A stretch of 64,000 nucleotides of DNA from an uncultured Fibrobacterota bacterium (GTDB taxonomy: Bacteria; Fibrobacterota; Chitinivibrionia; Chitinivibrionales; JANQEN01). Made by a program: the position numbers and the translations under genes. Shown one piece after another: positions 852-64,000 of the stretch (its first letter is position 1; each line of letters starts with the position of its first letter). The stretch covers positions 1,300 to 65,299 of the forward strand of contig CAZIYW010000011.1 in the NCBI GenBank assembly GCA_964543525.1, written 5' to 3'. The notes beneath the pieces are model-generated. The model was not told the origin of the DNA, ran no database searches, and saw only the letters and a list, made by a program, of their open reading frames with translations.

Positions 852-1237
852 GCAGCACGCTTCCGTCTGTAGAACCGGTATGCCGCGTAAAATCCCGTGA
901 TTACACCAATGGTGTCGGCGACAAAATCCTGCCAGGTGCAGAGCCGGTTGGGAATTGCCATCTGATGCAGCTCGTCAAGGCCTGCATAAGCAATACTGAT
1001 AATTATTCCCAGCTTGAGCGTTCCCGCCATGGAGACATTCCTGCCTAAATGCATATATCGGAACAATAAAAAGGAGAAAATAAAATACTCCACCCAGTGG
1101 GCAAATTTATCAAAATTCCACAGGCCGACTTCAGGCAATTTTTTGCCGGGTGTGGAGCTGACTGCGATCATGAGTGCAGTCCACAGAAGGAACGGGAGGG
1201 TGAGCGTGAGGAATTTATTCTTAAACTGTACTCTCAT
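848..1237 (-). CDS. VanZ-like membrane protein
   Basis: DKFAHWVEY and DELHQ..IPNR...D..ADTIG motifs, with several TM helices. Confidence 0.85.
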   Translation of the reverse strand: MRVQFKNKFLTLTLPFLLWTALMIAVSSTPGKKLPEVGLWNFDKFAHWVEYFIFSFLLFRYMHLGRNVSMAGTLKLGIIISIAYAGLDELHQMAIPNRLCTWQDFVADTIGVITGFYAAYRFYRRKRAA

Positions 1238-1332
1238 GATACTGTGTCTTATCCTTTACAAAAACAACCATTTTTCATTAACCGTATGCAATGTATGTTG
1301 ACTCGTGATATCACGATCATGTAATCCTTTAT

Positions 1333-1941
1333 TTAGTCGCTTGCGAATCTTCTTAAAGCATCTATAGCTCTTGAAAGGCTGTATGAACGTCTGCACGCCC
1401 TTGAAATACTCCACTGTTCATTCACAAAAGTCGTCAATACCGCATTATAATCAGGGCCAATCTTGGCTGTTGAATTCTGAGAAGGAAGAATACTCTCTCT
1501 TATTTTCCTTTTACATGAACGTTTTACTAGTGAAAAAAGGTGTTTCTTTGGGTCCGGAAGTTGTTCCGGAGATCGGTGAACAATATGATTACTAATACCA
1601 ATTAATTTACTTATTCCTACATGATCCGCCAACAGCCAGGCTTCAATTTCGGGAACCGGTATTCTGAGAATAAGATTCTCACTGATTCCTGACGGTAACA
1701 ATTTATTTCGGAGGATTGGTGCACACTCAGTTGTATCAAGGTCGATTAAAATAAGGTATGGATGGTAACGAGCTGCTTCATTAAATTTTGTTATATGTGA
1801 ACGTATATATCCGGAACCCCGTCCATGATATTTTCGATGAACGACATATCGATTAGAAGCTGATTTCAGTAATTTTTCAGCAATAGAAGCACTTAAAATA
1901 TCTTCAAAAACTATGTTAATATGAATATCTGAGCCAGGCAT
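1333..1941 (-). CDS. DUF4276-like (TOPRIM-fold) protein
   Basis: VFED near the N-terminus, LIDLD (DxD), EIEAWLLAD motif; 11 bp downstream of an ABC-type ATPase. Confidence 0.7.
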   Translation of the reverse strand: MPGSDIHINIVFEDILSASIAEKLLKSASNRYVVHRKYHGRGSGYIRSHITKFNEAARYHPYLILIDLDTTECAPILRNKLLPSGISENLILRIPVPEIEAWLLADHVGISKLIGISNHIVHRSPEQLPDPKKHLFSLVKRSCKRKIRESILPSQNSTAKIGPDYNAVLTTFVNEQWSISRACRRSYSLSRAIDALRRFASD

Positions 1942-1952
1942 TAAGTATCTCT

Positions 1953-3104
1953 TTAAATATCCAACGAGAGCTGATGCACTTCATGAGGAGTTGTAAGAGG
2001 TAAAGCAGCTTCAGCAACACTCATTCCAGCTTCCAAAAGAGACTGTATTTCTTTATACTTCACTGCTAGTTCCGCCTGCGAACCCTCTCTGTCTGTAGTT
2101 AAAACTATTGTTTCCTCCCCTGATATTCCTTTATCGGAGAGCAGATCATAGCTATGGGTACTTATGAAAACCTGCCTTTTCGACTTAGCCATTACTCTAT
2201 GCATAATAGATGGTATCTGCTTTACAACATCTGCGTTAAGAGATAATTCAGGTTCCTCTAAGAGAAGGAGCGTGTTACTTTCCATTAATGACCATAAAAG
2301 CCCGATAAGCCGTAATGTTCCGTCTGAAAACTGATCCTCCTGTTGTTTTCCGGCTTTAGGACGCCAATGTTCATACAGCACCTCTAAATGCGGCATACCT
2401 ACATCATCCTTGGTAAATTTGAGTCGGGTTAATTGTGGAACGGCGCATTTTACCGCTCTCTCAATTCTTTTTAACCGTGATTCCCGTGTTTTATCCTTTG
2501 TTTTAGCCAGTCTTTCAAGGAAACTTCGTCCATACGGGTCCCCAGGTATACCGGGTCCTGAAAAAGCCCACGGATTTCTCAGTAATTGTGGAATTAAATG
2601 TAAATATAACGTCGAGCTCAAAAATGACGTAATTTCCCGGAACTCTTTATTAGCGGTCGTCTGCTCCAAATATGTTTCGGTAAGACGTTCAGAATCGATT
2701 TTATCATTTTTATCAGGTCTCTCCAATACCAATGAGTTATTCTTCCAAACACTTTCAGAATGTACTAAAGGACGACGGTGACCACGAGTCTCCTGAGTAA
2801 TCTCTAAAGAATATTTCCATTTCTCTTCGTTACCGTTTCCCCCGGATATAACCACTTCTATCTTAATTATAGGATCAGATTTTGCAGATAAGCAACGAAT
2901 CTTCGACACCCCTCCTCTATCTTTGACAGCAGCCTGCAGTCCACCTCCCTGCCCCTTTGCTATATCTCTCAGAAAACGAAATACATCAAGAAGATTTGAC
3001 TTGCCGGAAGCATTGGGGCCAATCACAAACATCCTTCTCCTCATGTCAACATCAACATGACGGAAATTACGCCAATTTCCGAGCGTAAGGTGACTTACCT
3101 GCAT
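1953..3104 (-). CDS. ABC/AAA_21-type ATPase
   Basis: Walker A GPNASGKS, signature FSDGT, Walker B LLLLEEPE, H-loop STHS. Start moved to ATG 3104 (MQVSHL), which follows a GGAG SD. Confidence 0.88.
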   Translation of the reverse strand: MQVSHLTLGNWRNFRHVDVDMRRRMFVIGPNASGKSNLLDVFRFLRDIAKGQGGGLQAAVKDRGGVSKIRCLSAKSDPIIKIEVVISGGNGNEEKWKYSLEITQETRGHRRPLVHSESVWKNNSLVLERPDKNDKIDSERLTETYLEQTTANKEFREITSFLSSTLYLHLIPQLLRNPWAFSGPGIPGDPYGRSFLERLAKTKDKTRESRLKRIERAVKCAVPQLTRLKFTKDDVGMPHLEVLYEHWRPKAGKQQEDQFSDGTLRLIGLLWSLMESNTLLLLEEPELSLNADVVKQIPSIMHRVMAKSKRQVFISTHSYDLLSDKGISGEETIVLTTDREGSQAELAVKYKEIQSLLEAGMSVAEAALPLTTPHEVHQLSLDI

Positions 3105-3196
3105 TTTTACTCTCCATTTATTAATCAAAGCATTTCCCTCGACAAGACTAAATCATGTCAGGGGTGTTACGTAATAAAAATATACCAATACGGGTA

Positions 3197-5644
3197 TTAA
3201 TTTCCAAAGGAAAAAACACCCCGCCCGACATTAATCTCTCTGACCTCAGGCACATTTTTCTTCCCACCTGAGCCATGCTGGTCGAGATAATATACCTGAA
3301 GGATATCGCCGGGGCGCACGGAAAGGCGATCTTTTTCCCGGGGTTTAAGGGCAAATACCGTACCGACTTCCGCAACGAAAACACCGGTGTTATTGCCGGT
3401 TTCAATGCAGGTTACGGGCAATTTATCGCTTGTCAGCCGTGAAGCGATTTTTATCCAGATTTTATCGCGGGTATTACTTTTCAGATTCATGTCATGGTCG
3501 GTAATGGTTACCGTAACATTCTGTCCGGGAAGGATAAAATCAGCGGGCGATAGTGTCACTATTGCATCGCTGCCCATCAGCAGGAGATCGCCCCAGAGGT
3601 CAGGAGAAACCGAGATATTTCTACCCATGTTTGTCACCCAGCGGATAAGCACGCCTTCACCATTGTTTATTGAATAATTGAATCCGATACTTTTTCCCGG
3701 CAGCGGATACCACTTCTCACACAGGACTGCAGGTACAAATACTTCACAGGTGTATTGATTTCCCTTTCGTATTGACCCGAACTGTATAAGGCCTTTTTTC
3801 AGAGGTTTTGGGATAAAAGCATGGGGTGACGAGAACACCGATTGTCCGGTACTCCCCTGAACACCGTATGCACGGGGCCATACCCAGAACTGAAAGCTGC
3901 GCCCGTTTATCCGGTGCGAATCTTTATGGTTAAGTGGATCGATAAAAATTTCCAGCGCGTCAGTGTCCCAGAATGTGGCAACGTTATGGGGGTTATCACG
4001 GTTATCATATATCTGATACGCGAAATAGATTCCCCGATTATCCCATTGTACCATGAGGCAGTTGCAGTTCTGCATTTCCGGCGGTAGTTTTTTCAATCCC
4101 TGCCCACTGCCGTATATCGCATAAAGCCTGCAGTGCCGCCATTCATTCAGATTGCCGTCGATAACTATCGGCGTCGTCCTGCGAACAGCCCCACCCCAGG
4201 CATTGGAATAGCTTCTCGTTTTGATAAGCGGTGTATAGGTCTGCAGCGTATCGCTCTTTTTTATGTTCTTGGTGAGAAAAACCTGTCTTGGAGAGGTATA
4301 GTCTTCCTTTTCTGCTTTCCCCATCGCACCCTTACCAATGCCAAGGGTTGTTGTGCCGGCAAGGTACCGTTCACGAATCTTTTTAGCAGCTTCTGCATAC
4401 TTGGCGAGGTTCGGCATGAGCAAATTCGGAGAAGCAGCCAGCTTACTGACAAGGTCAAGATAGTCCCGGGCCCATTGACTATAGTAATAGGGATTTTGCT
4501 TCAGGTCAAGTTCCGACGGCCCATCCCTGAACCATGCTGCAATATCCTCACCAAGTCCCTGCTGGAGTGTCTGGAGGAATTCTTCAATCTGACCCATTCC
4601 GCCTTGAATTTTTTCTCTCTGCTCCAATGCCTCCGCAATTGCTTTTGTAAAATCGATTTCAGTCAGTGCAGAAAAGGGGACATCACTACCGAGCATTGAG
4701 CGAGCCATCTCCAGAGCTTCTTTACCAAGCTCCCCGGCAAGCTTTTTCTTGTCGATAAAGAGTGTCCCAAAGAGAGTAAAACCGGAGCCGCCTATTTGGG
4801 GAATTGTCTCCCTGAAACAATCCTGTATATTGACATCAGGTATTTCATCGTTACCCGGAAAGGTACCGCCTTTTCCCGAACTGGGATACTCACAATTCTT
4901 TTTTCCACCTCTGCCGGGTAATAAACCGCACCGTGCCAGACACTGTTTCAGAGCTTCGCGCATCATTTCGCGCATACGATCCATAGCCTCTTCCTGCAGA
5001 GAAAAGAGCATCGACTCTTTCCAGAGCTTCATGAGTTCCGGATTGGTAACCATGCGGGAGAAGAGCCCCTCATTTCCCATCAGATCCTTCAGGCCCTTAC
5101 CATATATTTTCTCAAGCCGCTCAGCAAGACCGTCAATCAGTTTTTCCCAGTCATTTTCATCGTAAAACTTCTGCAGTGCGCTGTCATTGAGGTGTTTAAG
5201 AATCTGCTCCACGGCAGCCCTGCGAAGGAACTCACTCTGTGCAAAGAGAGAATCGCTGTCCGGCTGCCGGAGATAATTTTCGAGAAACTCTTGAAGTTCC
5301 TTTGATCGTGCAAACCGTTCCTCATACCATTCTTTGTTATATTCCGCGGGCTCTGTCTCTGTATATGCACCCCATTGCTTGATAGACAGGCTATCTGTCT
5401 GCCAGAGGCTTTCTATAACGGCGCTGTCCATGTATGGTGAAAGCAGGGATTCAAACATTTTGTAATCGACGGTCTCTTCATCGGCAAACTCACTGTCATC
5501 GATCGAATCGGCCGGCATTTCACGAGAGATATCCTCCTCATCCGGTGTCTGAATCACCCTGATGAATGCGGAAAATACCAGGGCATGCACAAGAAGGGAT
5601 ACTGACAGAAAGGTATTGAAATTACCGTTCATAACGACACTCAC
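3197..5644 (-). CDS. TonB-position protein: N-terminal TM anchor (S-x3-H), acidic and helical linker, CBM9/DOMON-like domain, C-terminal Ig-like domain
   Basis: TM FLSVSLLVHALVFSAF; IDGNLNEW..WDNRGIYF..DALEIFIDP..YTCEVFVP..GFNYSINN (CBM9-like); TITDHDMN..ETGNNTGVF. GTG start overlaps the exbD stop by 4 nt. Confidence 0.6.
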   Translation of the reverse strand: MSVVMNGNFNTFLSVSLLVHALVFSAFIRVIQTPDEEDISREMPADSIDDSEFADEETVDYKMFESLLSPYMDSAVIESLWQTDSLSIKQWGAYTETEPAEYNKEWYEERFARSKELQEFLENYLRQPDSDSLFAQSEFLRRAAVEQILKHLNDSALQKFYDENDWEKLIDGLAERLEKIYGKGLKDLMGNEGLFSRMVTNPELMKLWKESMLFSLQEEAMDRMREMMREALKQCLARCGLLPGRGGKKNCEYPSSGKGGTFPGNDEIPDVNIQDCFRETIPQIGGSGFTLFGTLFIDKKKLAGELGKEALEMARSMLGSDVPFSALTEIDFTKAIAEALEQREKIQGGMGQIEEFLQTLQQGLGEDIAAWFRDGPSELDLKQNPYYYSQWARDYLDLVSKLAASPNLLMPNLAKYAEAAKKIRERYLAGTTTLGIGKGAMGKAEKEDYTSPRQVFLTKNIKKSDTLQTYTPLIKTRSYSNAWGGAVRRTTPIVIDGNLNEWRHCRLYAIYGSGQGLKKLPPEMQNCNCLMVQWDNRGIYFAYQIYDNRDNPHNVATFWDTDALEIFIDPLNHKDSHRINGRSFQFWVWPRAYGVQGSTGQSVFSSPHAFIPKPLKKGLIQFGSIRKGNQYTCEVFVPAVLCEKWYPLPGKSIGFNYSINNGEGVLIRWVTNMGRNISVSPDLWGDLLLMGSDAIVTLSPADFILPGQNVTVTITDHDMNLKSNTRDKIWIKIASRLTSDKLPVTCIETGNNTGVFVAEVGTVFALKPREKDRLSVRPGDILQVYYLDQHGSGGKKNVPEVREINVGRGVFSFGN

Positions 5645-7203: not shown

Positions 7204-8406
7204 TCATCTGCAATGAACAACGATTTGTTCTCTATGACTTCCTTTTGTAAAAAACAGATACTCCTCTCCCCCGTCACCAAGCTTCAACATCTCTTTAATC
7301 TCCTCCGGGGCTAATGGAAAATCACGGCGGGCAATGTTTGCTTTTATAATGTTTTTCTCTTTGAGGTACTGTTTGACTTTTTTCCGCTGCCAGGGAATAA
7401 CGGTGACTACTTCAAAAATTCTTCCGGGGAAATCAATAACGCATCGTTCGGAGGTCATATAATCTATGGTATTGTTAACAAAGGGAATGCAGAACTCTTC
7501 GGCAACTCTTTCACTGCATCGAGATTTTATTATAGCTGGATCCGGGTCGTAAAAATAGCGGCCAATGGTGTTCGAGCAGATTCGCGATAATTTTTCATCA
7601 CCCTTTCGTTCAACTTCCACTTCAACGGCGCCGTCCGCTGCAAGCATAACCACTTTTACCAACGGTGACCGGGACGATGCTTTCCGGTTCAGCAGAAAAA
7701 GTATCTCCCTGCATTCACCTTCGACGGATACGACTACGGTTGTGTACAATCCGGGAAGCTGCATTTCCGCTTCGGACATTTCAAAAGCGGGTGAGGCCTT
7801 TATACAAATATTGGGTGCTTTTTTATAAAACAGTTCGATATACCCGGTAATATCCGGCTCACACCTGGAAAAACCGACGTAACGCCCCCGGGTATCACGC
7901 CGCGAAGGGTCACTATAGATCCAATCAAACGAGTTGTCCGGGTATTGAGATAAAATGGTAATACAATCTCCGGTATGTACGGTTATATTGGTTTTTTTCA
8001 GAGTCTTTATATTTTCCGAGAACAGACCGGCAAGTATGGGATTTTTTTCACAATACACAACCTTATCGAATAGTGTCGAGAGAAAGAAGGTGTCAATACC
8101 GAGCCCTCCGGTGCAGTCAAAGAGCCGCTGCCCCTGCATAAGCGTGGTTTTATAACGGGCTGTGGCTTCTGAAGAGGACTGTTCAAGCGCCACCCGTTCG
8201 TAAAGGATCTCCTTTTTTGAAAGTAAAGGTAATTTTTTCACGGCCTTTTTATAGCAGGCAATCTGTTCAGCAACAGCACGGACAGGCAGGTTTGATTTTT
8301 CGGAATAGTGCAGCGCAAATTCCGACGGGTCATCATCGATATGCGCTTTTAGGAGGGCTCTGGTCCGGTTGTCATTTATAAATTTATGCAACTCTTCTTT
8401 ATTCAT
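7204..8406 (-). CDS. Class I SAM-dependent methyltransferase with C-terminal THUMP-like domain
   Basis: EQSSSE, DCTGGLGID (SAM binding), DPSRR, IKASP; C-terminal ANIARRDFP. Confidence 0.8.
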   Translation of the reverse strand: MNKEELHKFINDNRTRALLKAHIDDDPSEFALHYSEKSNLPVRAVAEQIACYKKAVKKLPLLSKKEILYERVALEQSSSEATARYKTTLMQGQRLFDCTGGLGIDTFFLSTLFDKVVYCEKNPILAGLFSENIKTLKKTNITVHTGDCITILSQYPDNSFDWIYSDPSRRDTRGRYVGFSRCEPDITGYIELFYKKAPNICIKASPAFEMSEAEMQLPGLYTTVVVSVEGECREILFLLNRKASSRSPLVKVVMLAADGAVEVEVERKGDEKLSRICSNTIGRYFYDPDPAIIKSRCSERVAEEFCIPFVNNTIDYMTSERCVIDFPGRIFEVVTVIPWQRKKVKQYLKEKNIIKANIARRDFPLAPEEIKEMLKLGDGGEEYLFFTKGSHREQIVVHCR

Positions 8407-8756
8407 ATAATTCGTCTGATATGAGAAATAATCCAGGAATATATGGCATGCCGATATATCTGTTTCTTCGTATGCTTAAAAAATATTATCAGGCATATCA
8501 TTTATTAAGAAAACATTTCATTTTGCCACATCGGTTCTTTACCGTCATTATTTTCTGCTCCGCCGCAAGAGAGCGGCTGCGACTTAAGCGCATAACATAA
8601 ATATTTTATATACATAAATACCTTTAAGCACGATTAGGCGCTATTGTGCCATTTAATACAATTAAAATCAATTGATTACAAAATGATTACTCATTTAAAA
8701 ATAATTATATTTACTAATTTTGCTTAAATTTTATAAGCATTTTTTTAAAAAAAGTG

Positions 8757-8866: not shown

Positions 8867-9619
8867 ATGAAATCCTCAATCTTCATGTGCCTGGCAGCTT
8901 TGCCGCTTATCGCTCTTACCGGCTGTAATTTCAGCCCGCTGCAGACGGAAAACGACGATCCACAGATCACGGTGGAGGACGGCAATGCCGGTAGTGCATC
9001 CCTGGAATTGCAGGACATGGGCGATGCGGCCATGGAACTCTGGAATGGTACCCGTGAAAGCATGCAGGATACAATCAATATCGATATCACTATTATTCCC
9101 TGGAAATATAACGCAACGGTTGAAGGCTGGGTTCGTGAAGCCAAAGGGACCCTCGACGGCGGAGAAGTCACCCGGTACGACACCCTCTGGTTCTATGACG
9201 CCTCCGGCGCCGCCCAGATGATTCCGTCAATGGCAACCACTGCAAGCTACCGCCATGTCCGTTCGGTAAACGGTACCTATAACAACACATTCACCTATCG
9301 CTACGAGATGAATGTCGTTCTCGAAAAAGGCGCAACCGATACGGTGTTTGTGTTCAACGGTACTATTAACGGCGAATTCAACGGCGAATCGGTGGATAAC
9401 ACAGTCATATCAAATGTAAAGCGGAAGCTCATTCACCTGCCGTTCAGATGGCTTGCTTTTCCGCATGAAGGCACCATTGCAATAGACCGCCCGTTTAAAA
9501 CCGTGTACATAGAATTCGGCGGTGCGCAGACAGCCAAGGTGACCGTCACCCGTAAATCCGACGGGAAAACATGGGTCTATACCATAAACATAGTCACCGG
9601 CAGAGCGGTAATTGGCTAA
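8867..9619 (+). CDS. Hypothetical beta-rich lipoprotein
   Basis: Lipobox IALTGC; AGGAGG SD. Confidence 0.75.
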   Translation: MKSSIFMCLAALPLIALTGCNFSPLQTENDDPQITVEDGNAGSASLELQDMGDAAMELWNGTRESMQDTINIDITIIPWKYNATVEGWVREAKGTLDGGEVTRYDTLWFYDASGAAQMIPSMATTASYRHVRSVNGTYNNTFTYRYEMNVVLEKGATDTVFVFNGTINGEFNGESVDNTVISNVKRKLIHLPFRWLAFPHEGTIAIDRPFKTVYIEFGGAQTAKVTVTRKSDGKTWVYTINIVTGRAVIG

Positions 9620-9902: not shown

Positions 9903-10724
9903 ATGATATCGATATTCGACTATCAGAATTATCGTTTGTTCCTGATAGACTTTCTTAATGACAAAAAGCAGCATGAAAAGGGCTTTTCCCAGCGGGACAT
10001 CCTGAAAAAGATGGGGATAAGCTCCAGTGGTTTTCTTGCCAATGTCCTCTCGGGAAGGAATAACCTCACCACCACTCAGATAGCGCTGTTAGCCAGGGTA
10101 CTGAAATTCAAAAAAAGTGAAACCGCCTATTTTGAAGCTTTGGTTCTTTTCACTCAAGCAAAGACCCTTGATGAAAAAAATCTGTATTACTCCCGGATGG
10201 TAAAGCTGCATAAATCGAAATTTAAAAGTCTGAAGTCAAACCAGCTCAGTCTTTTTGCCAAATGGTACTATGCCGTCATTCGTGAGCTTATCTATTTCTA
10301 TACGTTCAAAGATGACTACAAAGAGCTGGCAAAAATGGTTGAACCGCCGATTTCACCAAAAGAAGCAAAGGAAGCTATTCACGAGCTGGAAAAAATCGGC
10401 CTCATTTACAGAGGGAAAGACGGCGTCTACCGCCAGAAAAGCGGAATTGTCACAACGGGCGACGAAGTGCGCTCCTTTCATGTCGCCAATTTCATCATGG
10501 AAACACTCAGACACGCCGAACGGGCTATGGATACGGTCCCACCGCAGGAGCGGGATATGTCCGTACTGACACTGAAATTATCGGAAGCGACTATGAAACA
10601 AATGAAAACAGAGATTCAGATGTTCAGAAAAAAACTGCTGCGCATGGCTGAATCGGATACAAATCAGAACCGGGTCTTCCAATGCAATATCAACTTCTTT
10701 CCTGCGACCAAGAGGGAGGAATAA
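9903..10724 (+). CDS. TIGR02147/DUF4423-family protein (N-terminal HTH)
   Basis: SIFDYQNYRLFL start, FSQR...SSGFL..VLSGRNNL, WYYAVIRELI, C-terminal VFQCNINFFP. Confidence 0.85.
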   Translation: MISIFDYQNYRLFLIDFLNDKKQHEKGFSQRDILKKMGISSSGFLANVLSGRNNLTTTQIALLARVLKFKKSETAYFEALVLFTQAKTLDEKNLYYSRMVKLHKSKFKSLKSNQLSLFAKWYYAVIRELIYFYTFKDDYKELAKMVEPPISPKEAKEAIHELEKIGLIYRGKDGVYRQKSGIVTTGDEVRSFHVANFIMETLRHAERAMDTVPPQERDMSVLTLKLSEATMKQMKTEIQMFRKKLLRMAESDTNQNRVFQCNINFFPATKREE

Positions 10725-10725
10725 T

Positions 10726-12051
10726 ATGGCCATGGCATTGCATTCAATAAAAAAGAAACGTTCAAACAGCTTGTGGTGTCTCCCCCTTATACTGCCTGGT
10801 ATACTGGCACTATTTACCGGCTGCTCTCTGCCGGTTGCCGACAGTGAAGCGGGAAATCCAACGGTAATATCCGCCAATACACTGATACAATTACCATCGG
10901 CACTTACCAAAGATTCGCCTCCTGTCACAGGATCCTCCCCCCGACAGAGCAACAACGATCTTGCCGTTATTATCTATGAATCGGTACGGTATCAAAATTA
11001 CTTCGTCAATGAACTGGTGAACGGAAGCGATCAGAGCATTAAAACGTTTCTGGAAGAAGATATCCGGCGGCTGCCCTGGCCCTATATCAAGGAGCACGGA
11101 GTATTACTCTACGACTCCGCCTCATTTCATTTTGAGGCCACATTCGACAAAACGCTGGAATTGTCCCATCAGGTAACTATCAAATTCAATGATCCCGTTT
11201 TCGGGTATATGATAAAAACAGCGTTTAGCGGCAACGCGGAAAATCCCAAAGGGTGGATCTATTATTTCACCGACTATACCGGTGATTTCAGAACCGATTC
11301 ACTCGAAATGCTGGTCTTATTTGAAAAAACCGATACCTCGAGGCAACTTGATATTGAAATCGATCAGAAATTACTGATCCCGTCAGAAGATCTCGCTCAG
11401 TCCTTCAGCTATTCGTGGTACCAGAACGACGGCGTTATACACCTCTCAGGTATAAGTTACCATCCGTATCTCGACAGTATTCTCAAGGACACCGTCGGCT
11501 ACTGTTACACATACAGGGCAGTAGCGGACAGCAGCAAGAATCTTGCGATAGTCAACCTCGGTCTGCCCCCGGCATCGTACCCGGATACCGCCTTTCTCTT
11601 TACGACCTACGGCATTGCGAACGCTTACGGTAATTATTTTATTAACTACAGTATCCCCATGCTCGACGATACCGGTAAAATGCTCCTCGCCACCTCGGTA
11701 AAAGACACGCTTACCCTGCTGCAGATTCTGGTAAAAATTGCTGTTGATCCCACTTTTACCCTCCATGACCCTTCGGAAGCCGACAGCCTGACCATTGCCG
11801 ATCTCATTCTCTACCTTGAAATCAACAAGGGTATCTTGGAACAAATTGATGAAGCGAATAAAAAGCAGTATATCGGACTGCTCTGGATCCTGAAACTAAC
11901 CCAACCGGTTTATTTTAATGCAAACGGGTATGCCGGAAACGGAGAAACCGTTCCATCGGGATTTACAGACCTTGCTGCAATACCCTGTAACCGGCCAAAA
12001 TTCATCCCCACGGCGATAAAAGATCTCCAGATTGTGATACCCCAACAATAA
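10726..12051 (+). CDS. Hypothetical lipoprotein
   Basis: Lipobox LFTGC followed by SEAGNP; 1 nt after the TIGR02147 gene. Confidence 0.7.
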   Translation: MAMALHSIKKKRSNSLWCLPLILPGILALFTGCSLPVADSEAGNPTVISANTLIQLPSALTKDSPPVTGSSPRQSNNDLAVIIYESVRYQNYFVNELVNGSDQSIKTFLEEDIRRLPWPYIKEHGVLLYDSASFHFEATFDKTLELSHQVTIKFNDPVFGYMIKTAFSGNAENPKGWIYYFTDYTGDFRTDSLEMLVLFEKTDTSRQLDIEIDQKLLIPSEDLAQSFSYSWYQNDGVIHLSGISYHPYLDSILKDTVGYCYTYRAVADSSKNLAIVNLGLPPASYPDTAFLFTTYGIANAYGNYFINYSIPMLDDTGKMLLATSVKDTLTLLQILVKIAVDPTFTLHDPSEADSLTIADLILYLEINKGILEQIDEANKKQYIGLLWILKLTQPVYFNANGYAGNGETVPSGFTDLAAIPCNRPKFIPTAIKDLQIVIPQQ

Positions 12052-12090
12052 TACCGATGAACCAATCGTATAATTGTCAGGTGGTTTACG

Positions 12091-12128
12091 GTCGAAATGA
12101 CAAAAAAAGGACTTTGCGGACGGACATC
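12091..12128. repeat. Right half of a MITE/REP-like element
   Basis: GTCGAAATGACA-A6-GGACTTTGCGGACGGACATC matches the inner arm at 13841 and the terminal arm at 46428-46443. Confidence 0.55.
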
Positions 12129-12341
12129 CGTTAGTCTGAATAACATACGAGAACTAATAGACATTTCAGTCGCACTGAATATATATTGATTTTCATACCG
12201 TTTAACCACATATCATCTAACTGGGTATCTGAAAATATCTATATCCCACAAATCATCAAAGGATGCTTCTCAGCAAGTAATGTCTATATTTCACAAATAC
12301 CGAAAGACACAATTCCATTCAATGAAAGGTTCTGATCCTCA

Positions 12342-54793: not shown

Positions 54794-56656
54794 ATGATCC
54801 GTTTCAGCTCTCTGGTTTTTTTTCTGTTTGTAATCTGTTCTCACGTGTCTGGTGTTGAGGTAACCACTTATAATTCCTCTATCAATCTTGCCGAGGCCAT
54901 GAAACAGACCCTGTGTCCAACAACACCCTCCGGTATAACCAATTTTACTGCGAATTATACTACCATCGCCGGTGAGAGTATGGCCGGTACCTATAAAAAA
55001 TTACCTCTTATAGATGGGGTGCAGTTGGAAGACGGGGTCGTATTGACCAGCGGGAAAGCAATTGATTGTGTCGGGCCCAATGATCACGGCAGTAAAACAA
55101 CAAGTTTCGGTTATCCGGCAGATAATGATCTGCAGAGTTTAGTGGGGACAATGGTCTTTGATCCATCGGTAATGGTACTGAACTTTGAATCTGATCAGAC
55201 GATAACAGGTATAACCTTTGATTTCATTTTCGGGTCGGAAGAGTGGAAAGAGTATGTGGGAAGTCAATTTAATGATATTTTTGTCTGTCTGCTGGATGGG
55301 AGAAATATCTGTCTTGATTCCGATACCAACCTGATTGGCATTAACAGTCCGGAATTCAAGGTCGATAATCTTGACGATCACCTTGACATGCAGTATGACG
55401 GCTTCACTGTTCCGTTACGAACTTCGACCACTCTCAGCCCCGGTCAGCACACCCTGAAATTTGCCGTAGCCGATGTTTCAGATGCGCTGCTTGATGCCGG
55501 TGTATTTCTCTCTAATTTTTCATTTACCTTTTCCGGTAAAGAGGGTACCTATCCCATTGACAGCCTGCATGATTCCATTCCGCGCCTTATTGCCCACCCG
55601 AGCCCGACTGAAGAAAGACGGCCGACCCTTTACTGGCATCCGCTACAGATGCCGCAGGCTGTTTACACGATCCAGATTGACACAACCGGCACGTTCCTCT
55701 CCCCGATAGTAAGCCTCCCGGTGGCTGATACGGTATATACACCGGCTGTGGATCTGCCGATCGATACCATTTACTGGCGGGTGAAGGAATCCGGCGGCCG
55801 CTGGTCACCGCACAGTGTCTTTGAGATTATTCCTGATATGAATTTAGTACCGAAGATTATTCCGTATGTTCCCAAGGTTACCCAGAACGTTACCCCGACT
55901 CTCAGCTGGCACAGTGTGTCCGGTGCAGCATTATATATTCTTTCGATAGATGATGACTATAATTTTTCGTCGCCGATTACCACCACTCCCCTTTCCGACA
56001 CGACCTATACACCGGTGATAGCACTGCCCTATGGCCCGATATACTGGCATGTAAAATCAGATCTTGTCGACTACTGGTCTGAGCCAGATAAGATTTGGAT
56101 TGTACCCGATACGATACCTTTTATTATCAGGTATAACGGCAACACTACCAGTAACGCGCGTCCTGAATTTAAATGGCACCCGGTTACCGGCGCGACATCA
56201 TACAAGATTCTGGTGTCTGATACCAACCTTTTCTTAAATCCGATTATACTTCCTGTAGCGGATACGGTTTGTGTTCTGCCTGCAGCCCTTGCAGCCGGGG
56301 TGTGGTATTGGCAGGTTAGCAGCAGCAGGAACCTTGCACTGTTTTGTCCTTATGACAGTCTGGTTATCGATCCTTCAGAAGTTGTACCGTCTGTTTCAGA
56401 AAGTAAAAAGGGAGTGCAAATCATACAGGGGGTAAATGGGTGCAGGATAATTTTTCACAGCGCATTGGGAAATGGAATATGGGTTCGGATTTTCTCGTTG
56501 CAGGGGAAGGTAATTGCAGAGTTGTCAATCCGCACGAATAGCTTCATGTGGGATTACACTGATAAGAACGGATTGTCCGTTCCCGCCGGGATGTATATCA
56601 TGCATATAATAAACGGGAAAGAGGAGCTGTTTCGGAAGGTACAGGTTATTCGGTAA
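54794..56656 (+). CDS. Secreted choice-of-anchor-L-like protein with 3 FN3-like stalk repeats and a T9SS-type C-terminal domain
   Basis: GVVLTSG..FDFIFGSEEWKEYVGSQFND..DGF..ADVSDALLDAGVF; 3x P.L.WH..Y...YW.V; tail IFSLQGKVI..WD..G.Y. Confidence 0.8.
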   Translation: MIRFSSLVFFLFVICSHVSGVEVTTYNSSINLAEAMKQTLCPTTPSGITNFTANYTTIAGESMAGTYKKLPLIDGVQLEDGVVLTSGKAIDCVGPNDHGSKTTSFGYPADNDLQSLVGTMVFDPSVMVLNFESDQTITGITFDFIFGSEEWKEYVGSQFNDIFVCLLDGRNICLDSDTNLIGINSPEFKVDNLDDHLDMQYDGFTVPLRTSTTLSPGQHTLKFAVADVSDALLDAGVFLSNFSFTFSGKEGTYPIDSLHDSIPRLIAHPSPTEERRPTLYWHPLQMPQAVYTIQIDTTGTFLSPIVSLPVADTVYTPAVDLPIDTIYWRVKESGGRWSPHSVFEIIPDMNLVPKIIPYVPKVTQNVTPTLSWHSVSGAALYILSIDDDYNFSSPITTTPLSDTTYTPVIALPYGPIYWHVKSDLVDYWSEPDKIWIVPDTIPFIIRYNGNTTSNARPEFKWHPVTGATSYKILVSDTNLFLNPIILPVADTVCVLPAALAAGVWYWQVSSSRNLALFCPYDSLVIDPSEVVPSVSESKKGVQIIQGVNGCRIIFHSALGNGIWVRIFSLQGKVIAELSIRTNSFMWDYTDKNGLSVPAGMYIMHIINGKEELFRKVQVIR

Positions 56657-56677
56657 GATTTACAGGCAGGTAGTCTT

Positions 56678-58621
56678 ATGAATTCATTACTACAAAAAAA
56701 TAGAATGGTAAGGATATTCATATCATTTTGCTGTGTATTGGTGATCTGCCAGGCACATGGTTTTACCGCACAAACCGGTAAAAGCGATCGCTCGCCAGGT
56801 TCAATTGTTTTCATCCTTGATGTTTCAATCTCAAATCATCAGACCGATAATAATGGAAAAAGGTTTGAGATCCTTAAAGGTATTGTAGACTCCCTTTACA
56901 GGATGGATTCTGAAATAATGATAGGGCTGGTTTTTTTTGCCGGTAATTTATGGTTTTATCCTCCTGATGACTCTCTTTTTGTAGATTTCCCCGACCATCC
57001 GGGAGGGTTTGTCCCCCTGTTACAAACCAGTGATGAGTATTCCGGGATTTATACACTTACCGATAATTTGGGGAATATAATCAGCCAGACACCCTATACG
57101 AAAAAAGGGATAGATGTTTTAAAAATGTATCTTGATACAACCAGAAGATCCTCGACTTGGGGTGTTGAGCCCAAATACCGCCCCTCTTCCTCGATTAGTG
57201 CAGGTTCGAGCATAACCGAGGCTTTTGATGCCGCAAAATACGCGCTCCTGAATTCTCCTCATGATAAAGACAGACAGTTTATCGTTTTTATAACTGATGG
57301 TGGAGGCACTACCAATAATGACTATGTTCTCGGGCTGAATACCCCTGCTACATTTACTGTCTATTACAATCCCCAGAGCCCGGATGATCTTGCCGACTTA
57401 CAGCTAATGACTACTAATATCAGTAGTAACGGCTTTTCTGCATCCAACCCGAAAAGCGATTTGTGGGATATGAGTGTTGGATTAGCTGCCCTGATGGATC
57501 AATTGCTAAAACTTGTTTTTAACAGTAACAAGATTCCGGCGTTAATCCCGGTTGCAAGCCCGACATTTAATAGAAGGCCGGCCATGCAGTGGCATAAACC
57601 GGCTGATGCTGTCACTGCATATACACTACAGGTTAGTACAACCAGTGATTTCTCATCACCAATAGTCAATGTGCCGGTAACTGATACATTATACACCGCT
57701 CCAATAGATTTACCACCGGGTATGATTTACTGGCGTGTCCGTGGTGACGATTCTCCCTGGTCCGGTGCGAGCTCATTTGAAATCCTCGATGACCGGGTGC
57801 CTCTTCTTATACACTATCAAAGTCCCACACTCAACCGTAAACCCACGCTCACCTGGTACAAACCATCATCACCACCCACAGCATTTTACAGCATTATGAT
57901 CGCGGATAATGCACAAATGACCACCCCGTTGGTAGATGCACAGGTTGCTGATACATTCTACACCTGTACCGATGCATTACCACTGGGAACAATATACTGG
58001 AAAGTGAAATCGGATCTGGTCGCTACCTGGTCGAAAATCGGCGCCTTTGATATTCAACCGGATTCTATACCGTTCCTTTTCAGATATAACGGGCAGGAGA
58101 TAACCACCCGGCGGCCTGATTTCAAATGGTACACGGTCATCGGAGCCGACTCGTATAAACTGATGATTGCCGATAATAACAGCTTTGCAAATGCAATAAT
58201 ACTGCCGCTGCCCGATACGGTGTATTCAATGCAGACGGATCTGGCATTTGGTAAGTGGTTCTGGAAAGTAAGCTCGAGTAAAAACCTTTCCCTGTTCAGC
58301 CAGGTGGATAGTCTGATTATCGATATTACACCGGTAAATACCCACAACAGTAAATCAGCAGAGATATATAAAATTTTCCAGTCAGTACGTTCAATTAGAA
58401 TAATTTTTAATAATATGATAGGGCAATATACGAAGGCCGCTATCTATTCATTGGATGGTAGATTAATTACTGAATTTACACCAGCGAACTCCGGAAAAAT
58501 CGAATTTGTATGGGACTACTCAAACAAATACGGTTCGAGAGTATCGAAAGGTGTTTATTTGGTTAGAATATTTCATGGTGACGTATGTGGGGTATACAGA
58601 GTACTTTTGTCAAGACAGTGA
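56678..58621 (+). CDS. Secreted VWA-domain protein with 3 stalk repeats and a T9SS-type C-terminal domain
   Basis: MIDAS DVSIS, IVFITDG; same three repeats as the upstream gene; tail IYSLDGRLI..WDY..GVYL. Confidence 0.82.
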   Translation: MNSLLQKNRMVRIFISFCCVLVICQAHGFTAQTGKSDRSPGSIVFILDVSISNHQTDNNGKRFEILKGIVDSLYRMDSEIMIGLVFFAGNLWFYPPDDSLFVDFPDHPGGFVPLLQTSDEYSGIYTLTDNLGNIISQTPYTKKGIDVLKMYLDTTRRSSTWGVEPKYRPSSSISAGSSITEAFDAAKYALLNSPHDKDRQFIVFITDGGGTTNNDYVLGLNTPATFTVYYNPQSPDDLADLQLMTTNISSNGFSASNPKSDLWDMSVGLAALMDQLLKLVFNSNKIPALIPVASPTFNRRPAMQWHKPADAVTAYTLQVSTTSDFSSPIVNVPVTDTLYTAPIDLPPGMIYWRVRGDDSPWSGASSFEILDDRVPLLIHYQSPTLNRKPTLTWYKPSSPPTAFYSIMIADNAQMTTPLVDAQVADTFYTCTDALPLGTIYWKVKSDLVATWSKIGAFDIQPDSIPFLFRYNGQEITTRRPDFKWYTVIGADSYKLMIADNNSFANAIILPLPDTVYSMQTDLAFGKWFWKVSSSKNLSLFSQVDSLIIDITPVNTHNSKSAEIYKIFQSVRSIRIIFNNMIGQYTKAAIYSLDGRLITEFTPANSGKIEFVWDYSNKYGSRVSKGVYLVRIFHGDVCGVYRVLLSRQ

Positions 58622-58658
58622 ATGTAGAATGTTAAGGTAAGTAAGATTGAAGAATTTT

Positions 58659-60047
58659 ATGAAAAGTAAAATTACAGTTATTAAAGTCTTTCTTTTTTTA
58701 ATCTCTGCTTTTGCCCTATCATGGGCTAAAACCTCAGCTTTAGATGATATACTATCGAAAGGCAGTCGAGTTTCCGTCATGTTTGTCTTTGACAACTCGA
58801 CCAGCATGTTTCTGTATCTGGCGAATAATCCTCATCCCAATCCGAACGATTCCGACGGTGTGCGGTATACTGTTGCGCGGGAGTTATTGGATTCTATTTA
58901 TGCACGATCGCCCTCGTCTGAGGTCGGTATTGCTGCTTATGCAACCCATCTCTATTTTGATCCGCAGGATGATCCGCTCTTTACAGCAATTGATTCTACC
59001 GGATACAATCTGCTGGGAGGATATATTCCCCTGCTGCAACTGGACAAGGCCACAACGGTTGGCAATAATACCGGGAAGACCGGGTATGACGTGTTAAAGC
59101 AGTATCTCACTTTAAAAGATTACACCTTTGTCTATCAGAACCATGAAAATATCTATAAAAATCCGGCATATGTACCCACCGGAACCCAGCTTAATCCGTT
59201 GACCGTAGAACCTTCAGGGACAAATGTGTGGGGAGGTTTTGCTGCGGTAAAGCAGGCAATGAAAAGCAGCATTAATGAAAGGGAGTACCAGTATGCTGTT
59301 TTCTTTTCCGATGGAGAGCAGGGACATGTGGGGGATGCCGGACCAGTCGGTTTTGACTGGGATGATCTGGCATCAGTAAATGCACCAACCACCTTTGCCG
59401 CCTATCTTGATACAACCGGGATTCTATTTCAAATAGAAAACTTTATTGAATTAATTAAAGAAAACGGATATTCTATCAATAATCCAAATTCCCTGCTTAT
59501 GGCCTTTCATCCGCTCCAAACCGTGCAGAAGGAACTCTATAAAAATAAAGTTATAAAACTACTGTTTAATGATATGCCGCAGGTCGCACTTATTCCCTGT
59601 CAAAGCCCGACCTATAACAGGCGTCCAACTCTTACCTGGCACACTGCAGGGGTTTCAACCTATACCATACAGATTGCACCGTCACCGGATATGTCACAGC
59701 TTATAGTCAGTGTTCCGGTAACGGATACGTTATATACTTCGCAGGTAGATTTACCTATAGACACGCTCTACTGGCGGGTGAAAGGTGACAACATGGCCTG
59801 GTCTGATATTGGCTCATTTGAAATTATTCCGCAGACCTCTATTAACACGATCAATACAGGGAATCATGCAAATTTAGTAAACAGGAAGACACAAATTGAG
59901 ATATATACTTTGGATGGTAGGTGTATCGGTAGTTATGATCAGTTGAAAACAGGATTAATTAACCGGAAGATTTCTTCCGGGATATATATAGTGAAAGTGA
60001 AAACCGGGGGAAAAATATCACTTTTTAAAAAGATGATTAATCGCTGA
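58659..60047 (+). CDS. Secreted VWA-domain protein with 1 stalk repeat and a T9SS-type C-terminal domain
   Basis: MIDAS DNSTS, VFFSDG; one repeat; tail IYTLDGR..GIYIVKV; ATG 58659. Confidence 0.82.
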   Translation: MKSKITVIKVFLFLISAFALSWAKTSALDDILSKGSRVSVMFVFDNSTSMFLYLANNPHPNPNDSDGVRYTVARELLDSIYARSPSSEVGIAAYATHLYFDPQDDPLFTAIDSTGYNLLGGYIPLLQLDKATTVGNNTGKTGYDVLKQYLTLKDYTFVYQNHENIYKNPAYVPTGTQLNPLTVEPSGTNVWGGFAAVKQAMKSSINEREYQYAVFFSDGEQGHVGDAGPVGFDWDDLASVNAPTTFAAYLDTTGILFQIENFIELIKENGYSINNPNSLLMAFHPLQTVQKELYKNKVIKLLFNDMPQVALIPCQSPTYNRRPTLTWHTAGVSTYTIQIAPSPDMSQLIVSVPVTDTLYTSQVDLPIDTLYWRVKGDNMAWSDIGSFEIIPQTSINTINTGNHANLVNRKTQIEIYTLDGRCIGSYDQLKTGLINRKISSGIYIVKVKTGGKISLFKKMINR

Positions 60048-60093
60048 TAGCGCTGCGCCAAAATTAAGTTGCGCAGGTTTATAATAAGAGAGC

Positions 60094-62151
60094 ATGTGTA
60101 TGAAAAAAGTTGTAGTATATTTCCTTTTTTTATTGTCTTACGTTTATGCTTCAGAAGAATTCATACATTATCACAATATGGATTTAATATATTCATTGGC
60201 AATTGATAGTGATACTGTCTGGACAGGCACCTCTGGCGGAATAATTAAAAGGAATTTACAGGGCGAGATTCTTGAAACATATCTCAAGGAAGACGGCTTT
60301 TATGGCGCCGGCACAACAGTTATTGCTGTTGATAAAAATGGCTATAAATGGTTTAATTCTTACACTGGTATACACAAGTTTGACGGCAGTACCTGGGAAA
60401 AATTTGACACATCGGATGGTTTACTGGGAAAGAGTTCAAGTGGAATTGCATCGGACTCGAAAGGCAATGTCTGGGTAGCAATCTGGGGAAAGGGTGTAAA
60501 CAGATTTGATGGAACGAAATGGGAAGCATTTACTGAAGATGATGGCTTAATCACAAATGAAATCTATTGTCTGACAATTGATACTTCAGATAATGTCTGG
60601 ATTGGAACAAATGATGGAATAAGTATGTTTGATGGCACAAACTGGACATCATATACTGTTGCCGACAGCTTACCTGATGACTGGATTAATGCAATTACTG
60701 TCGATGACAGTAATAATATCTGGGCAGGCACCGGTGATGGAGTATGCAAATTTAACGGGACAACATGGGAAACATTAAATTCAGTCGATATCAGTTGTAT
60801 CACCATTGATAAAAATGGTACTGTCTGGGCCGGGACTCATTATTATCTGCTTCGGTATGATGGAGACGAATGGGAAAGAATCACCACAGAAGACGGCCTT
60901 GCAGATAATTATATAACAGAACTGGCTGTTGATTATAATAATAATCTCTGGGTGGGAACTGTATATCGATTGTGTATGTTTGACGGTACTAACTGGCATA
61001 TTTTCCGAGACACGAATTCTCTGGTAGATATGACAGTTAATTCAGTTGCTGTGGATAAAAACAACAACAAGTGGTTCGGTACAAGAAGGGGATTAAGTTT
61101 GTTTGATGGAATTTCATGGAAAACATATGATTCCACGAATGGCCTACCCGGTAACGAGATTTATAAGCTGCATACAGACAATGAAGGTGACCTCTGGTGT
61201 ATTGTCCGGGATGCCGGTATCTGCAAGCACGACGGGACATCATGGACCACAATCGACTCCCTGGCAGGATTCCACACAAAAGAAATTACTTCAATGACAT
61301 CAGACAAGTACGGCAATATGTGGTTTGGTATAGCCGGTGTCGGGGTATTTAAATATGACGGTTCTACCTGTGAAATGTTTGATACATCCAGCGGGTTGCC
61401 GGATGGAAATGTCGGCAAAATTGCTGTCGATAACGATGGCAACCTGTGGGCCAATATGTACTATAATGGCGTGGCTGAATTCGATGGGGTAGCATGGACA
61501 ATGTATGATTCGTCAGACGGGCTTTACCCGGACCGGGTGTCTCATATAGCTGTTGATTCTTATGGTAATGTATGGGCCGGTTCCGTCTATTGGGGAGTAA
61601 GTAAATATGATGGAACCGCCTGGAAGTCATTAGTATCAGGATTGACAATCCGGGTTGAAGATATGGTTGCGGATAGAAAAGGAAATGTCTGGTTTTGTAT
61701 GGAAAAGGGGTGTATTCTTAAATACAGCAATAATGGTAAGAAAACGATTAAATTATCCGACGGTCCGTATAAACTTAATACTGTTGTATATTCCGCTGCC
61801 TATGATAACGATGATACCATGTGGTTTGGAACAGGTGATGGGGTTATTGTTCTCATTGATACAAGTACCAATAGTATAAACCAGTTGCCGATTACCGGTA
61901 TTTCTGAAAAGAGAGTATTTATTTCCGGCCAAAACCTGGTTATTAAACATAATCAGTTTAGCAACCCAAATACATCTATTTTTCTGTATACCCTGTCTGG
62001 AAGATGCGTTAAGAAGAAAGTCCTGTCCAATTGCCCTGCTGATAAAGACATCCTGATGAATATCAACGATCTGGCAAATAATATCTATATCTGTAAAGTT
62101 AAAAATGGGAAGGGAACGGTTTTTTCTGAGAAGTTTCTTGTTTGCCAATAA
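60094..62151 (+). CDS. Secreted beta-propeller repeat protein (two-component-regulator-propeller type, PorZ-like) with a T9SS-type C-terminal domain
   Basis: More than 10 repeats of DGL..N.I..IA.D...N.W.GT; no TM or kinase domain; tail LYTLSGR..NIYICKV. Confidence 0.8.
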   Translation: MCMKKVVVYFLFLLSYVYASEEFIHYHNMDLIYSLAIDSDTVWTGTSGGIIKRNLQGEILETYLKEDGFYGAGTTVIAVDKNGYKWFNSYTGIHKFDGSTWEKFDTSDGLLGKSSSGIASDSKGNVWVAIWGKGVNRFDGTKWEAFTEDDGLITNEIYCLTIDTSDNVWIGTNDGISMFDGTNWTSYTVADSLPDDWINAITVDDSNNIWAGTGDGVCKFNGTTWETLNSVDISCITIDKNGTVWAGTHYYLLRYDGDEWERITTEDGLADNYITELAVDYNNNLWVGTVYRLCMFDGTNWHIFRDTNSLVDMTVNSVAVDKNNNKWFGTRRGLSLFDGISWKTYDSTNGLPGNEIYKLHTDNEGDLWCIVRDAGICKHDGTSWTTIDSLAGFHTKEITSMTSDKYGNMWFGIAGVGVFKYDGSTCEMFDTSSGLPDGNVGKIAVDNDGNLWANMYYNGVAEFDGVAWTMYDSSDGLYPDRVSHIAVDSYGNVWAGSVYWGVSKYDGTAWKSLVSGLTIRVEDMVADRKGNVWFCMEKGCILKYSNNGKKTIKLSDGPYKLNTVVYSAAYDNDDTMWFGTGDGVIVLIDTSTNSINQLPITGISEKRVFISGQNLVIKHNQFSNPNTSIFLYTLSGRCVKKKVLSNCPADKDILMNINDLANNIYICKVKNGKGTVFSEKFLVCQ

Positions 62152-62507: not shown

Positions 62508-63692
62508 ATGAAAGTAAAATCCCCCCTTATTGTATGTATTGTCTGTTTTCCGATGAAGTTACCTACCAACTCGCTGAAAAACGAGCTGAAATTCATGTTT
62601 CCAATTCCATAGCTGAATTTCCCGGATCACCTCTTTTCGGACTGCTCGGTGAGCCAAATTTACCTGTCGATAATATAACCCTGCTTCTTCCTCCGGATGC
62701 GGATCTGAGTACCGTTTCGGTTTCAATTAAACACAGCAGGTTCGTTGATATTCAGGGGAAATTTGACATAAATCCCAGATACCCGTTGAGAACTACTGAT
62801 GGCGATATTGAGACTGATGTGAGAAAACGGATTGTTAATGACTGTGATATTGAGATCTATTCATCAAACAGCTTTTTTCCGAAAAATTGTATCAGAAGTG
62901 TTCAGGTCGGTCAGCTTGAAATTATAAGCTGTTAAATATTATTGTGCAACGGTATAAGTTTAATCCGGTTCTTGGAAAGTTAAAGCATCTTGCATCAGGC
63001 GACCTCATCGTATCATTTAGCAAGGAAGTTAACCGTCCTGATTTCAGTTATGGGATACCTGCCACGTTTGCGGCAACCGTTGCAGATATCACTGATAATT
63101 ATCGTGAAGTTGCCGGTGCATATGCTGCTTTGAGAACAGTACAAAAATCTACCTATTTAATAATAACAACGTCATCGTTACAGAGCTCCCTGTCCTCACT
63201 ATCGAAATTTAAAAATATTAAAGCGAATCAGGGATTCAATGTAGAAACCATTACTGAGTCAACCTGGGGGGGGGGAGGGGGGTGGCGCCGGTGATGCTGC
63301 CATGAATAAAATCCGCGACTGGCTCCAGAATAATTATCAGTCTAAAAGTATAGAATATGTTTTTATTATCGGCGATCCCAATACGTCAAGCCAGACCCCA
63401 ATGGCACACGGACCGACCGCTTCAGATACCCGGCCGCTGGTCGATTATTGTTACGCTGATTTGAGTACCAGGGTGTGGAAGGCCGATGGCAGGACCTACG
63501 CTGAATATGGCGAAACCCGGAACAATCGATATTATTGATATGCGTGGTAAACGGATTGCCAGACTAAATATATCAGGTACCGGTTTTGTTAAATGGAACT
63601 ATACTTCCAAAAATGTTGCAAAGGGAATTTATTTCGCGAGATTTTATTATAAAGATGCTTTGTCTGCAGGATTAAAGTTTTACCTAAAATAA
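62508..63692 (+). pseudogene. Peptidase C25 (gingipain-like) gene, frameshifted and internally deleted, retaining a T9SS-type tail
   Basis: ATG 62508 signal MKVKSPLIVCIV; propeptide GEPNLP..LLLPP..YKFNP; YLIIT..K...GF, IRDWL..YVFIIGD, DYCYADL; frameshifts near 62550, 62917 and the G10-A-G6 tract 63266-63282; jumps to IIDMRGKRI..GIYF near 63515. Confidence 0.82.
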
Positions 63693-63861
63693 AAAGCATA
63701 AAGAGTTCAAATCCTTTTTTAAAATGAAAGATAAAACACCAGTGACAGAGATTAACCAATTGTTCGAAGCTTCAAAATCCAGATAAGCAGGTACCAACTG
63801 TTAAAAATCGCACCGTTATGTCATTTTAACGAAAATAGTGTTCGGTGAATGGGAATGAATA

Positions 63862-63938
63862 AACCAACGAGTAAAATGAGTGGAAAGGTACTCTTTTATA
63901 AATAAATACACTTTTTCACTCCATTTTTATAGTTATGT
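63862..63938 (-). mobile_element. Integron attC site (77 bp)
   Basis: Minus strand: R'' ACATAAC, 5 nt, L'' AAATGGAG (8 nt, extra G), central region, L' CTCATTT (7 nt), 5 nt, R' GTTGGTT; the upstream gene's TAA lies within R''. Confidence 0.7.
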
Positions 63939-64000
63939 ATTCAGATTTCCACCAAGTTCATCAATATCTGCAATATCTTTGGGGCGTCCGGACTCTCGTT
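63933..64000 (-). CDS. 3' end of a probable nucleotidyltransferase-like (toxin-antitoxin-type) protein; gene starts beyond the window
   Basis: Minus strand reads RESGRPKDIADIDELGGNLNT*, similar to the K..SGRPKD..D C-terminal motif of such proteins; only 22 codons visible. Confidence 0.5.
   Translation of the reverse strand, partial: RESGRPKDIADIDELGGNLNT

Follow-up and report, generated by a model that had tools for sequence, protein, structure and literature searches.

Genomic setting of the locus

The stretch of DNA analysed here, 64 kb long and referred to as the window, is chromosomal, as it encodes ThrRS, the PheRS beta chain, SMC and tRNA genes. The best named matches of ThrRS are found in Chitinispirillia and Chitinivibrionales, with 69-75% identity, and bear out the Fibrobacterota-like host that had been suggested from the bare sequence. 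The locus at the end of the window is present in hydrothermal-vent and sediment metagenomes. Specifically, the final 10 kb of the window are also contained in the metagenome contig L001 (12,590 bp; reverse complement, L004), which runs 2,585 nt past the window edge. Window coordinates are obtained from those of L001 by adding 53,995, an offset that is valid after a poly-G tract differing by one G between the two sequences.

This tract is located at window 63266-63282 (L001 ~9272-9287) and reads G10AG6 in the window and G9AG6 in the overlapping contig. The one-base difference splits or joins a peptidase-C25-like frame, which comprises 116 aa plus 78 aa in the window and 197 aa in L001. Public-run contigs also break at the G10AG6 tract, which could be slippage-prone or a sequencing problem. 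With either version of the tract, the peptidase-C25-like gene looks decayed. Upstream of it, four consecutive large plus-strand ORFs (620, 647, 466, and 685 aa) occupy window 54794-62151, and a Pfam match is on record only for the first of them (Choice_anch_L).

The ORF that leaves the window on the minus strand is complete on L001 and encodes a protein of 151 aa. This protein matches Pfam DUF6036 (1.4e-8) and DUF2204 (9.8e-8) and shows weak AbiEii matches, in line with the original prediction, which had recognised the gene end as that of a toxin-antitoxin (TA)-type nucleotidyltransferase. A 62-aa ORF overlaps the gene upstream and has a sub-threshold match to the 'addiction module component' family TIGR02574. 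Judging from the weak AbiEii and TIGR02574 matches, the DUF2204/DUF6036 pair may function as a toxin-antitoxin module.

Upstream of the gene pair come, in this order, a leader of ~75 nt, an unstructured segment of ~85 nt, the Y1 transposase gene of an IS200-like element, and IS3-like orfA/orfB. The Y1 transposase gene (Pfam Y1_Tnp, 7e-34) lies between GC-rich hairpins, e.g., CCACCACCAGAGGTGGTGG. The rve domain of the IS3-like orfB stops at profile position 48 of 102, and L001 ends soon after. At L001 ~10670-12217, i.e., 700-2200 nt past the window end, the Y1 gene sits where orfB is cut off. The absence of the remainder of the IS3-like element points to a rearrangement beside the gene pair. 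Just upstream of orfA, a perfect 13-bp inverted repeat (GCACCGAGGGAAC ... GTTCCCTCGGTGC, 25-nt loop) is found at L001 ~12245-12296. The five fetched contigs containing the gene share the same flanking sequence. Apart from the 12.6-kb contig, each measures less than 2 kb and breaks off within or close to the IS200-like element.

Geometry of the hairpin

The gene for the 151-aa protein ends in an imperfect attC-type hairpin of 77 nt, which extends on the minus strand from R'' ACATAAC to R' GTTGGTT (window 63938-63862). Its features and those of the adjoining genes are given below, together with the evidence for each; L109 and L110 are sequences with equivalent sites, and R2 is a covariance model described in the following section.

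63862..63938, minus strand: attC-type imperfect hairpin (sequence, pairs verified; R2 alignment; conserved in L110; compensatory changes in L109)
63932..63938, minus strand: R'' box ACATAAC with the stop codon TAA (63935-63933) inside (identical 7-mer in L109 and L110)
63917..63927, minus strand: L'' arm AAAAT[G]GAGTG with the extrahelical G 63922 on the AAC-bearing arm (pair check by indices)
63873..63882, minus strand: L' arm CACTCATTTT (pair check by indices)
63862..63868, minus strand: R' box GTTGGTT (L110 homology stops exactly at the GTT of R')
63933..64000, minus strand: last 22 codons and stop of the gene for the 151-aa DUF2204/DUF6036 nucleotidyltransferase (rest beyond the window)
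L001 9938-10532, beyond the window: remainder of the gene for the 151-aa protein and its 62-aa partner
L001 10587-10581, beyond the window: predicted 5' end of the cassette, GTTAAAT

Canonical attC sites are characterised by AAC/GTT boxes, unpaired central spacers of about 5-6 nt per arm, an extrahelical base located on the top-strand arm with AAC, another unpaired feature deeper in the stem, and a length of 57-141 nt; the first extrahelical base of the bottom strand is usually G (PMC5027507). Read on the minus strand, the window site has the sequence ACATAAC TATA AAAAT[G]GAGTG AA AAAG (23 nt) CTTT C CACTCATTTT ACTC GTTGGTT. All 17 listed pairs are of the Watson-Crick type; they make up the AAC/GTT box, a 10-bp L stem, and an inner stem of 4 bp. 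The bulged G 63922 is followed 5 bp further in by a 2x1 internal loop, and inward of the L stem this loop leads to the 4-bp stem and a terminal region of 23 nt. A repeat finder reports the outer arms as 13 nt with 77% complementarity.

The site possesses inverse core boxes with a pairable AAC/GTT, each box departing by one base from RYYYAAC/GTTRRRY, and an extrahelical L-box base on the top-strand AAC arm, which is G on this strand and C on the bottom strand. The spacers comprise 4 nt per arm (TATA and ACTC), or 5 nt when parsed as originally proposed, and the 77 nt lie within the canonical length range. The attC geometry of the original prediction is confirmed, including the strand, the length, and the single extra G, as well as the stop codon embedded in R'' and the one-base deviation of each R box. 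In the integrated state the pairing of R'' with R' is poor, being limited to AAC/GTT and one A-T pair. The distance from the bulged G to the C of AAC is 10 nt in the window, L109, and L116b, versus 9 nt in attC-aadA1.

Some 30-70 nt after the hairpin, on the minus strand at window 63835-63792, the sequence CACTATTTTCGTTAAAATG is followed by ACATAAC-GGTGC-GATTTTTAACA-GTTGGTA. These fragments resemble an L'/R' half and an internally deleted attC copy. They were rejected as attC remnants, as their local alignment was no better than that of shuffles (p = 0.35).

Chance expectation, folding and covariance models

A strict geometry scan (AAC, 5 nt, 7 bp plus one bulge, 5 nt, GTT) gave three matches in the window, versus 1.2 expected from dinucleotide shuffles. 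With at most one mismatch in each R box, the only match was the site described here, versus 0.115 expected, and 10.5% of the shuffled windows contained at least one such site. Considered by itself and within the window alone, the attC geometry is real and suggestive, but not compelling and not significant. The fold is weak, with -8.4 and -8.9 kcal/mol for the two strands (z ~ -1.8); a further computation on this AT-rich site yielded -7.5 kcal/mol (z -1.4).

[quoted passage not shown] It gave no match on the candidate; the best score in the region was -0.7 bits, in another register. The model R2 is a second iteration built from R1 matches, including the sites of L060, L116, and L109 and excluding those of the window and L110. 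With R2, the site at window 63938-63862 is aligned over its whole length and in the expected register, and the bulged G falls on the consensus extrahelical position, albeit with only 10.5 bits and an E-value of ~8 (7.7) per 86 kb. R2 reported no match on the near-identical L110 site, and none at E <=5 in 796 kb of other loci. The covariance-model hit by which the original prediction was to be judged was consequently obtained weakly with R2 and not at all with the class 1 model R1. In Rfam, searched with gathering and E-value thresholds, no model recognising attC was found, and a class 1 integron used as control returned only attI, as AAC_AAD_leader.

In 1.15 Mb of fetched DNA, a regular expression combining motif and stem detected no site other than that of the window and its counterparts in L109 and L110. 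The pairs of these lineage sites were checked by explicit indices; MAFFT alignments (A4, A6) were gapped inside the stems.

Unit boundaries and conserved structure

The 62-aa gene and the gene for the 151-aa nucleotidyltransferase form part of a 714-bp unit, which was found in three contexts including the window, with ~90% identity. The window locus (L004) shares 722 nt with L110 at 89.8% identity (blastn), and the L110 protein is 87% identical at the amino acid level. The 62-aa gene is preceded at a distance of 75 nt by GTTAAAT, a perfect GTTRRRY, and the match to L110 sets in 5 nt before this heptamer. At its other end the match stops with the final T of the predicted R' GTT, and the sequences outside these limits are unrelated in both directions. 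In L109, the protein has 90% amino acid identity and the DNA is 91% identical over 678 nt, with the match starting 3 nt before the same GTTAAAT. The blastn boundaries of L110 and L109 and the junction sequences hence show the same unit in different contexts, ending at G↓TT (the arrow marks the predicted crossover point). The unit, TTAAAT...ACTCG, measures 714 bp and is bounded as expected of an integrated cassette. The R' box of the window reads as the 'deviant' GTTGGTT because the bases after GTT belong to the neighbouring DNA.

Within the site, all eight differences between the window and L110 fall on unpaired positions, of which there are 39, and none on the 34 paired positions. In the upper L stem of L109, four of five pairs are changed by double substitution (G-C to C-G, G-C to C-G, T-A to C-G, and G-C to T-A); despite this replacement of the stem, the geometry is unchanged and position 17 is still the bulged G. 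The equivalent site of L109 scores 16 bits with R1.

Directly upstream of GTTAAAT in L004, L109, and L110, no attC hairpin with convincing structure was found. A 35-nt R1 match at L109 535-569 was considered as an upstream attC and discarded, as it is too short for a full site. A metagenome-wide search with the 22-mer from the 5' end of the cassette returned the known contig; the one other match, attributed to chance, falls within a gene of L114, an AT-rich genome that is unrelated. The public-run contigs covering window 62900-64000 are low-coverage fragments (depth 2-7) and contain neither alternative junctions nor an empty site.

Relatives of the gene pair

Hundreds of relatives of the 151-aa protein exist across many phyla. 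Almost without exception, they are ordinary two-gene modules on chromosomes in which a terminator or nothing follows the stop codon, and 79 of the 80 genome loci with homologues of the gene pair are not beside attC sites.

Two sequences place relatives of the pair among attC-like sites. L116 (JGI 3300022689) contains at 1-4159 a homologue with 74% amino acid identity, in a same-orientation run with RelB-like/ParE, VapB/PIN, and a Phd fragment. R1 matches in this sequence score 23.5, 16.9, and 16.5 bits, and the L box of the site at 1993-2079 is likewise AAAATG[G]...CATTTT. The run looks like a toxin-antitoxin-rich cassette array in which the modules are separated by attC-like sites. In L060 (Brocadiaceae MAG B4_bin.26), a cluster of 3-4 attC sites at 2216-5316, scoring 35, 28, and 20 bits with R1, contains a homologue of the gene pair with 47% identity and adjoins a Mur-ligase gene. 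No integrase was found in the 9.3 kb of L060, and the cluster is a CALIN in an anammox planctomycete.

Other kinds of repeat accompany further relatives. In L009 (Chitinivibrionales MAG PL23a_bin.29; also in L012), 114-nt direct repeats with 96% identity at 7616-7729 and 8610-8723 flank a gene pair of 82% identity. These repeats are not attC-like according to R1; related shorter motifs ending in ...ATGACA are located just upstream. In L111 (~1488-1531) and L112 (~505-549), which carry an 80%-identical relative, the stop codon is followed by a 47-nt AAC...GTT hairpin and then by a GAACC-rich tandem-like repeat (CTTTGAACCTTGAACCTCTGAACCCCTGAACC).

Proposed cassette and its mobility

The hairpin at window 63862-63938 is probably the attC site of a 714-bp integron-type cassette, which carries the two-gene TA-like module and, over all of the sequence available, is fixed and solitary in this genome. 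Direct observations are the hairpin geometry, the conservation of its structure, and the bounding of the unit by GTT in three contexts. What decides in favour of an attC site is comparative, namely the boundaries, the conservation of structure, and the relatives in arrays.

From what is established for attC sites, a course of events can be proposed. The cassette would span 63868 to ~64581 in window-equivalent coordinates, with most of it lying beyond the edge. Its bottom strand, which is the plus strand of the window, would fold in single-stranded form into the imperfect hairpin, in which AAC/GTT forms the R box and the extrahelical base of the L box lies on the arm facing the bottom-strand AAC. 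Cleavage by an integron integrase would take place between A and C of this AAC, corresponding to G↓TT on the top strand, and the unit would be excised or inserted. The crossover would then fall between G 63868 and T 63867. A circular cassette would carry the perfect R' GTTAAAT, with TTAAAT supplied by the 5' end. The predicted circular junction is ...CATTTTACTCG↓TTAAATAAACAC..., and the predicted empty site is (upstream flank)G↓TTGGTTTATTC. By the same analogy, the window site may be recognised by an integrase and may currently be competent for recombination.

Lone cassette or part of an array

No other attC-like site was found in the 64-kb window with R1, R2, or the motif scan. In the 2,585 nt of L001 past the window, neither a second attC nor a tyrosine recombinase was found, and the transposase fragments present there are of the Y1_Tnp and rve families only. 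Together, these 66.6 kb, 2.6 kb of them beyond the window, hold no additional attC or intI of the kind that the original prediction expected in the adjacent sequence. The array envisaged beyond 64 kb finds no support in this sequence: the extension consists of the rest of one cassette, the ~85-nt spacer, the IS200-like gene, and the truncated IS3-like orfAB.

A complete integron has an intI with attI beside the cassettes, and no tyrosine recombinase was found in the 2.6-kb extension. A CALIN comprises at least two attC sites within ~4 kb and no integrase, and the window and L001 together contain one site. Within the 66.6 kb, the locus fits a SALIN, with one CDS-associated attC and no other att site or intI nearby. 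The cassette lies between the 3' end of the decayed peptidase-C25-like gene and the IS200-like and IS3-like elements. It is best described as solitary and SALIN-like, having inserted at a genomic GTT site, or alternatively as the last cassette of an array that IS elements disrupted.

It is rather doubtful that the site belongs, as originally proposed, to the distal cassette of a still-existing integron or CALIN with its other cassettes and intI beyond the IS elements. The orientation of the cassette would indeed have an array continue past 64 kb, arrays are commonly hit by IS insertions, every assembly breaks at the IS, and L116 and L060 show the gene pair as array cargo. Nevertheless, nothing attC-like or integrase-like was found in the 2,585-nt extension, the 85 nt preceding the cassette GTTAAAT do not fold (z +0.65), and the truncation of the IS3-like orfB suggests a rearrangement or deletion.

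Other explanations of the hairpin

The hairpin could be only a 3' stem-loop of the TA operon, acting as a weak terminator or stabilising the mRNA, in which case AAC/GTT would be coincidental and the module would have moved otherwise. Hairpins after stop codons are common, such a geometry is expected by chance about 0.1 times per window, the class 1 model gives no match, and many homologues have ordinary terminators or lack an attC, e.g., L016-L018. This explanation is nonetheless unlikely. The terminator scan is empty at the site, where the stem is AT-rich and no T-run follows. Moreover, both homology boundaries coincide with GTT core sites and jointly rebuild a perfect GTTRRRY, the bulged G is retained on the AAC arm while the stem sequence is replaced, and relatives of the pair sit in attC arrays.

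The possibility that the hairpin is the terminus of a single-strand transposon of the IS200/IS605 type, or of a derivative (PATE), connected with the neighbouring Y1 transposase was rejected as highly improbable. The Y1 transposase gene is ~800 nt away, and such elements use subterminal imperfect hairpins. However, the hairpins of the IS200-like element itself are GC-rich and unrelated, the 714-bp unit has a hairpin at one end only, and no Y1 transposase gene was called in L109 and L110, which also carry the unit.

Significance of a probable AT-rich attC site

As the probable attC of an integron-type cassette, the window site provides a worked example from a Chitinivibrionia-like (Fibrobacterota) chromosome of hydrothermal sediment. 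A class-1-trained model misses this attC and comparative junction analysis recovers it, which calls for caution regarding the sensitivity of attC detection in AT-rich non-proteobacterial genomes. The DUF2204/DUF6036 nucleotidyltransferase pair is added to the TA-like cargos of cassettes, and no new kind of system is revealed.

More tentatively, and with a low probability, the sites of the window, L110, L109, and L116 might represent a lineage-specific attC subtype of the Fibrobacterota/FCB group, served by an uncharacterised integrase with altered recognition of the extrahelical base. Such a subtype would be AT-rich, with an AAAAT/ATTTT L-box base and, as its first extrahelical base, a bottom-strand C located one nucleotide further from AAC than in class 1, and models trained on class 1 would largely miss its sites. 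If this were true, current attC finders would under-count cassettes in Fibrobacterota/FCB phyla.

Comparison with known systems

The window site shares several features with class 1 attC sites such as attC-aadA1 (60 nt). In both, R'' ends in AAC overlapping or following a stop codon and R' starts with GTT, the spacers comprise 4-6 unpaired nucleotides, and the extrahelical base of an L box of ~10 bp lies on the top-strand arm with AAC. Another unpaired feature is found a few base pairs inward, the length falls within 57-141 nt, and the crossover is at G↓TT. The differences concern mainly composition and the details of the L box. The window site is AT-rich, with 27% GC versus 53-65%, and its L box reads AAAAT[G].../...ATTTT versus GTT[C]AAGC/GCTTAAC in class 1. 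Its extrahelical base is G on the top strand and C on the bottom strand, in contrast to the usual bottom-strand G, and lies at a distance of 10 nt from AAC, versus 9 nt. It is separated from the second unpaired feature by 5 bp, versus 6, and the site scores below 0 bits with the class-1-trained model.

SALIN, a single attC lacking an integrase, is the published category for lone cassettes (bioRxiv 10.1101/2022.09.11.507474). A SALIN is defined by an attC call of IntegronFinder, whereas the window site is known from home-made models and comparison, and given the IS elements next to it, it could alternatively derive from a truncated array. Within the 66.6 kb, the locus resembles a SALIN in being a chromosomal unit of one CDS plus a probable attC with no other att site or intI nearby, and the unit is bounded by GTT, as expected of an insertion between an attC and a genomic site.

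Compared with the TA cassettes of sedentary chromosomal integrons and CALINs, the window locus differs in having one attC only. It resembles them in its two-gene TA-like cargo, of which relatives occur in the L116 run and the L060 cluster.
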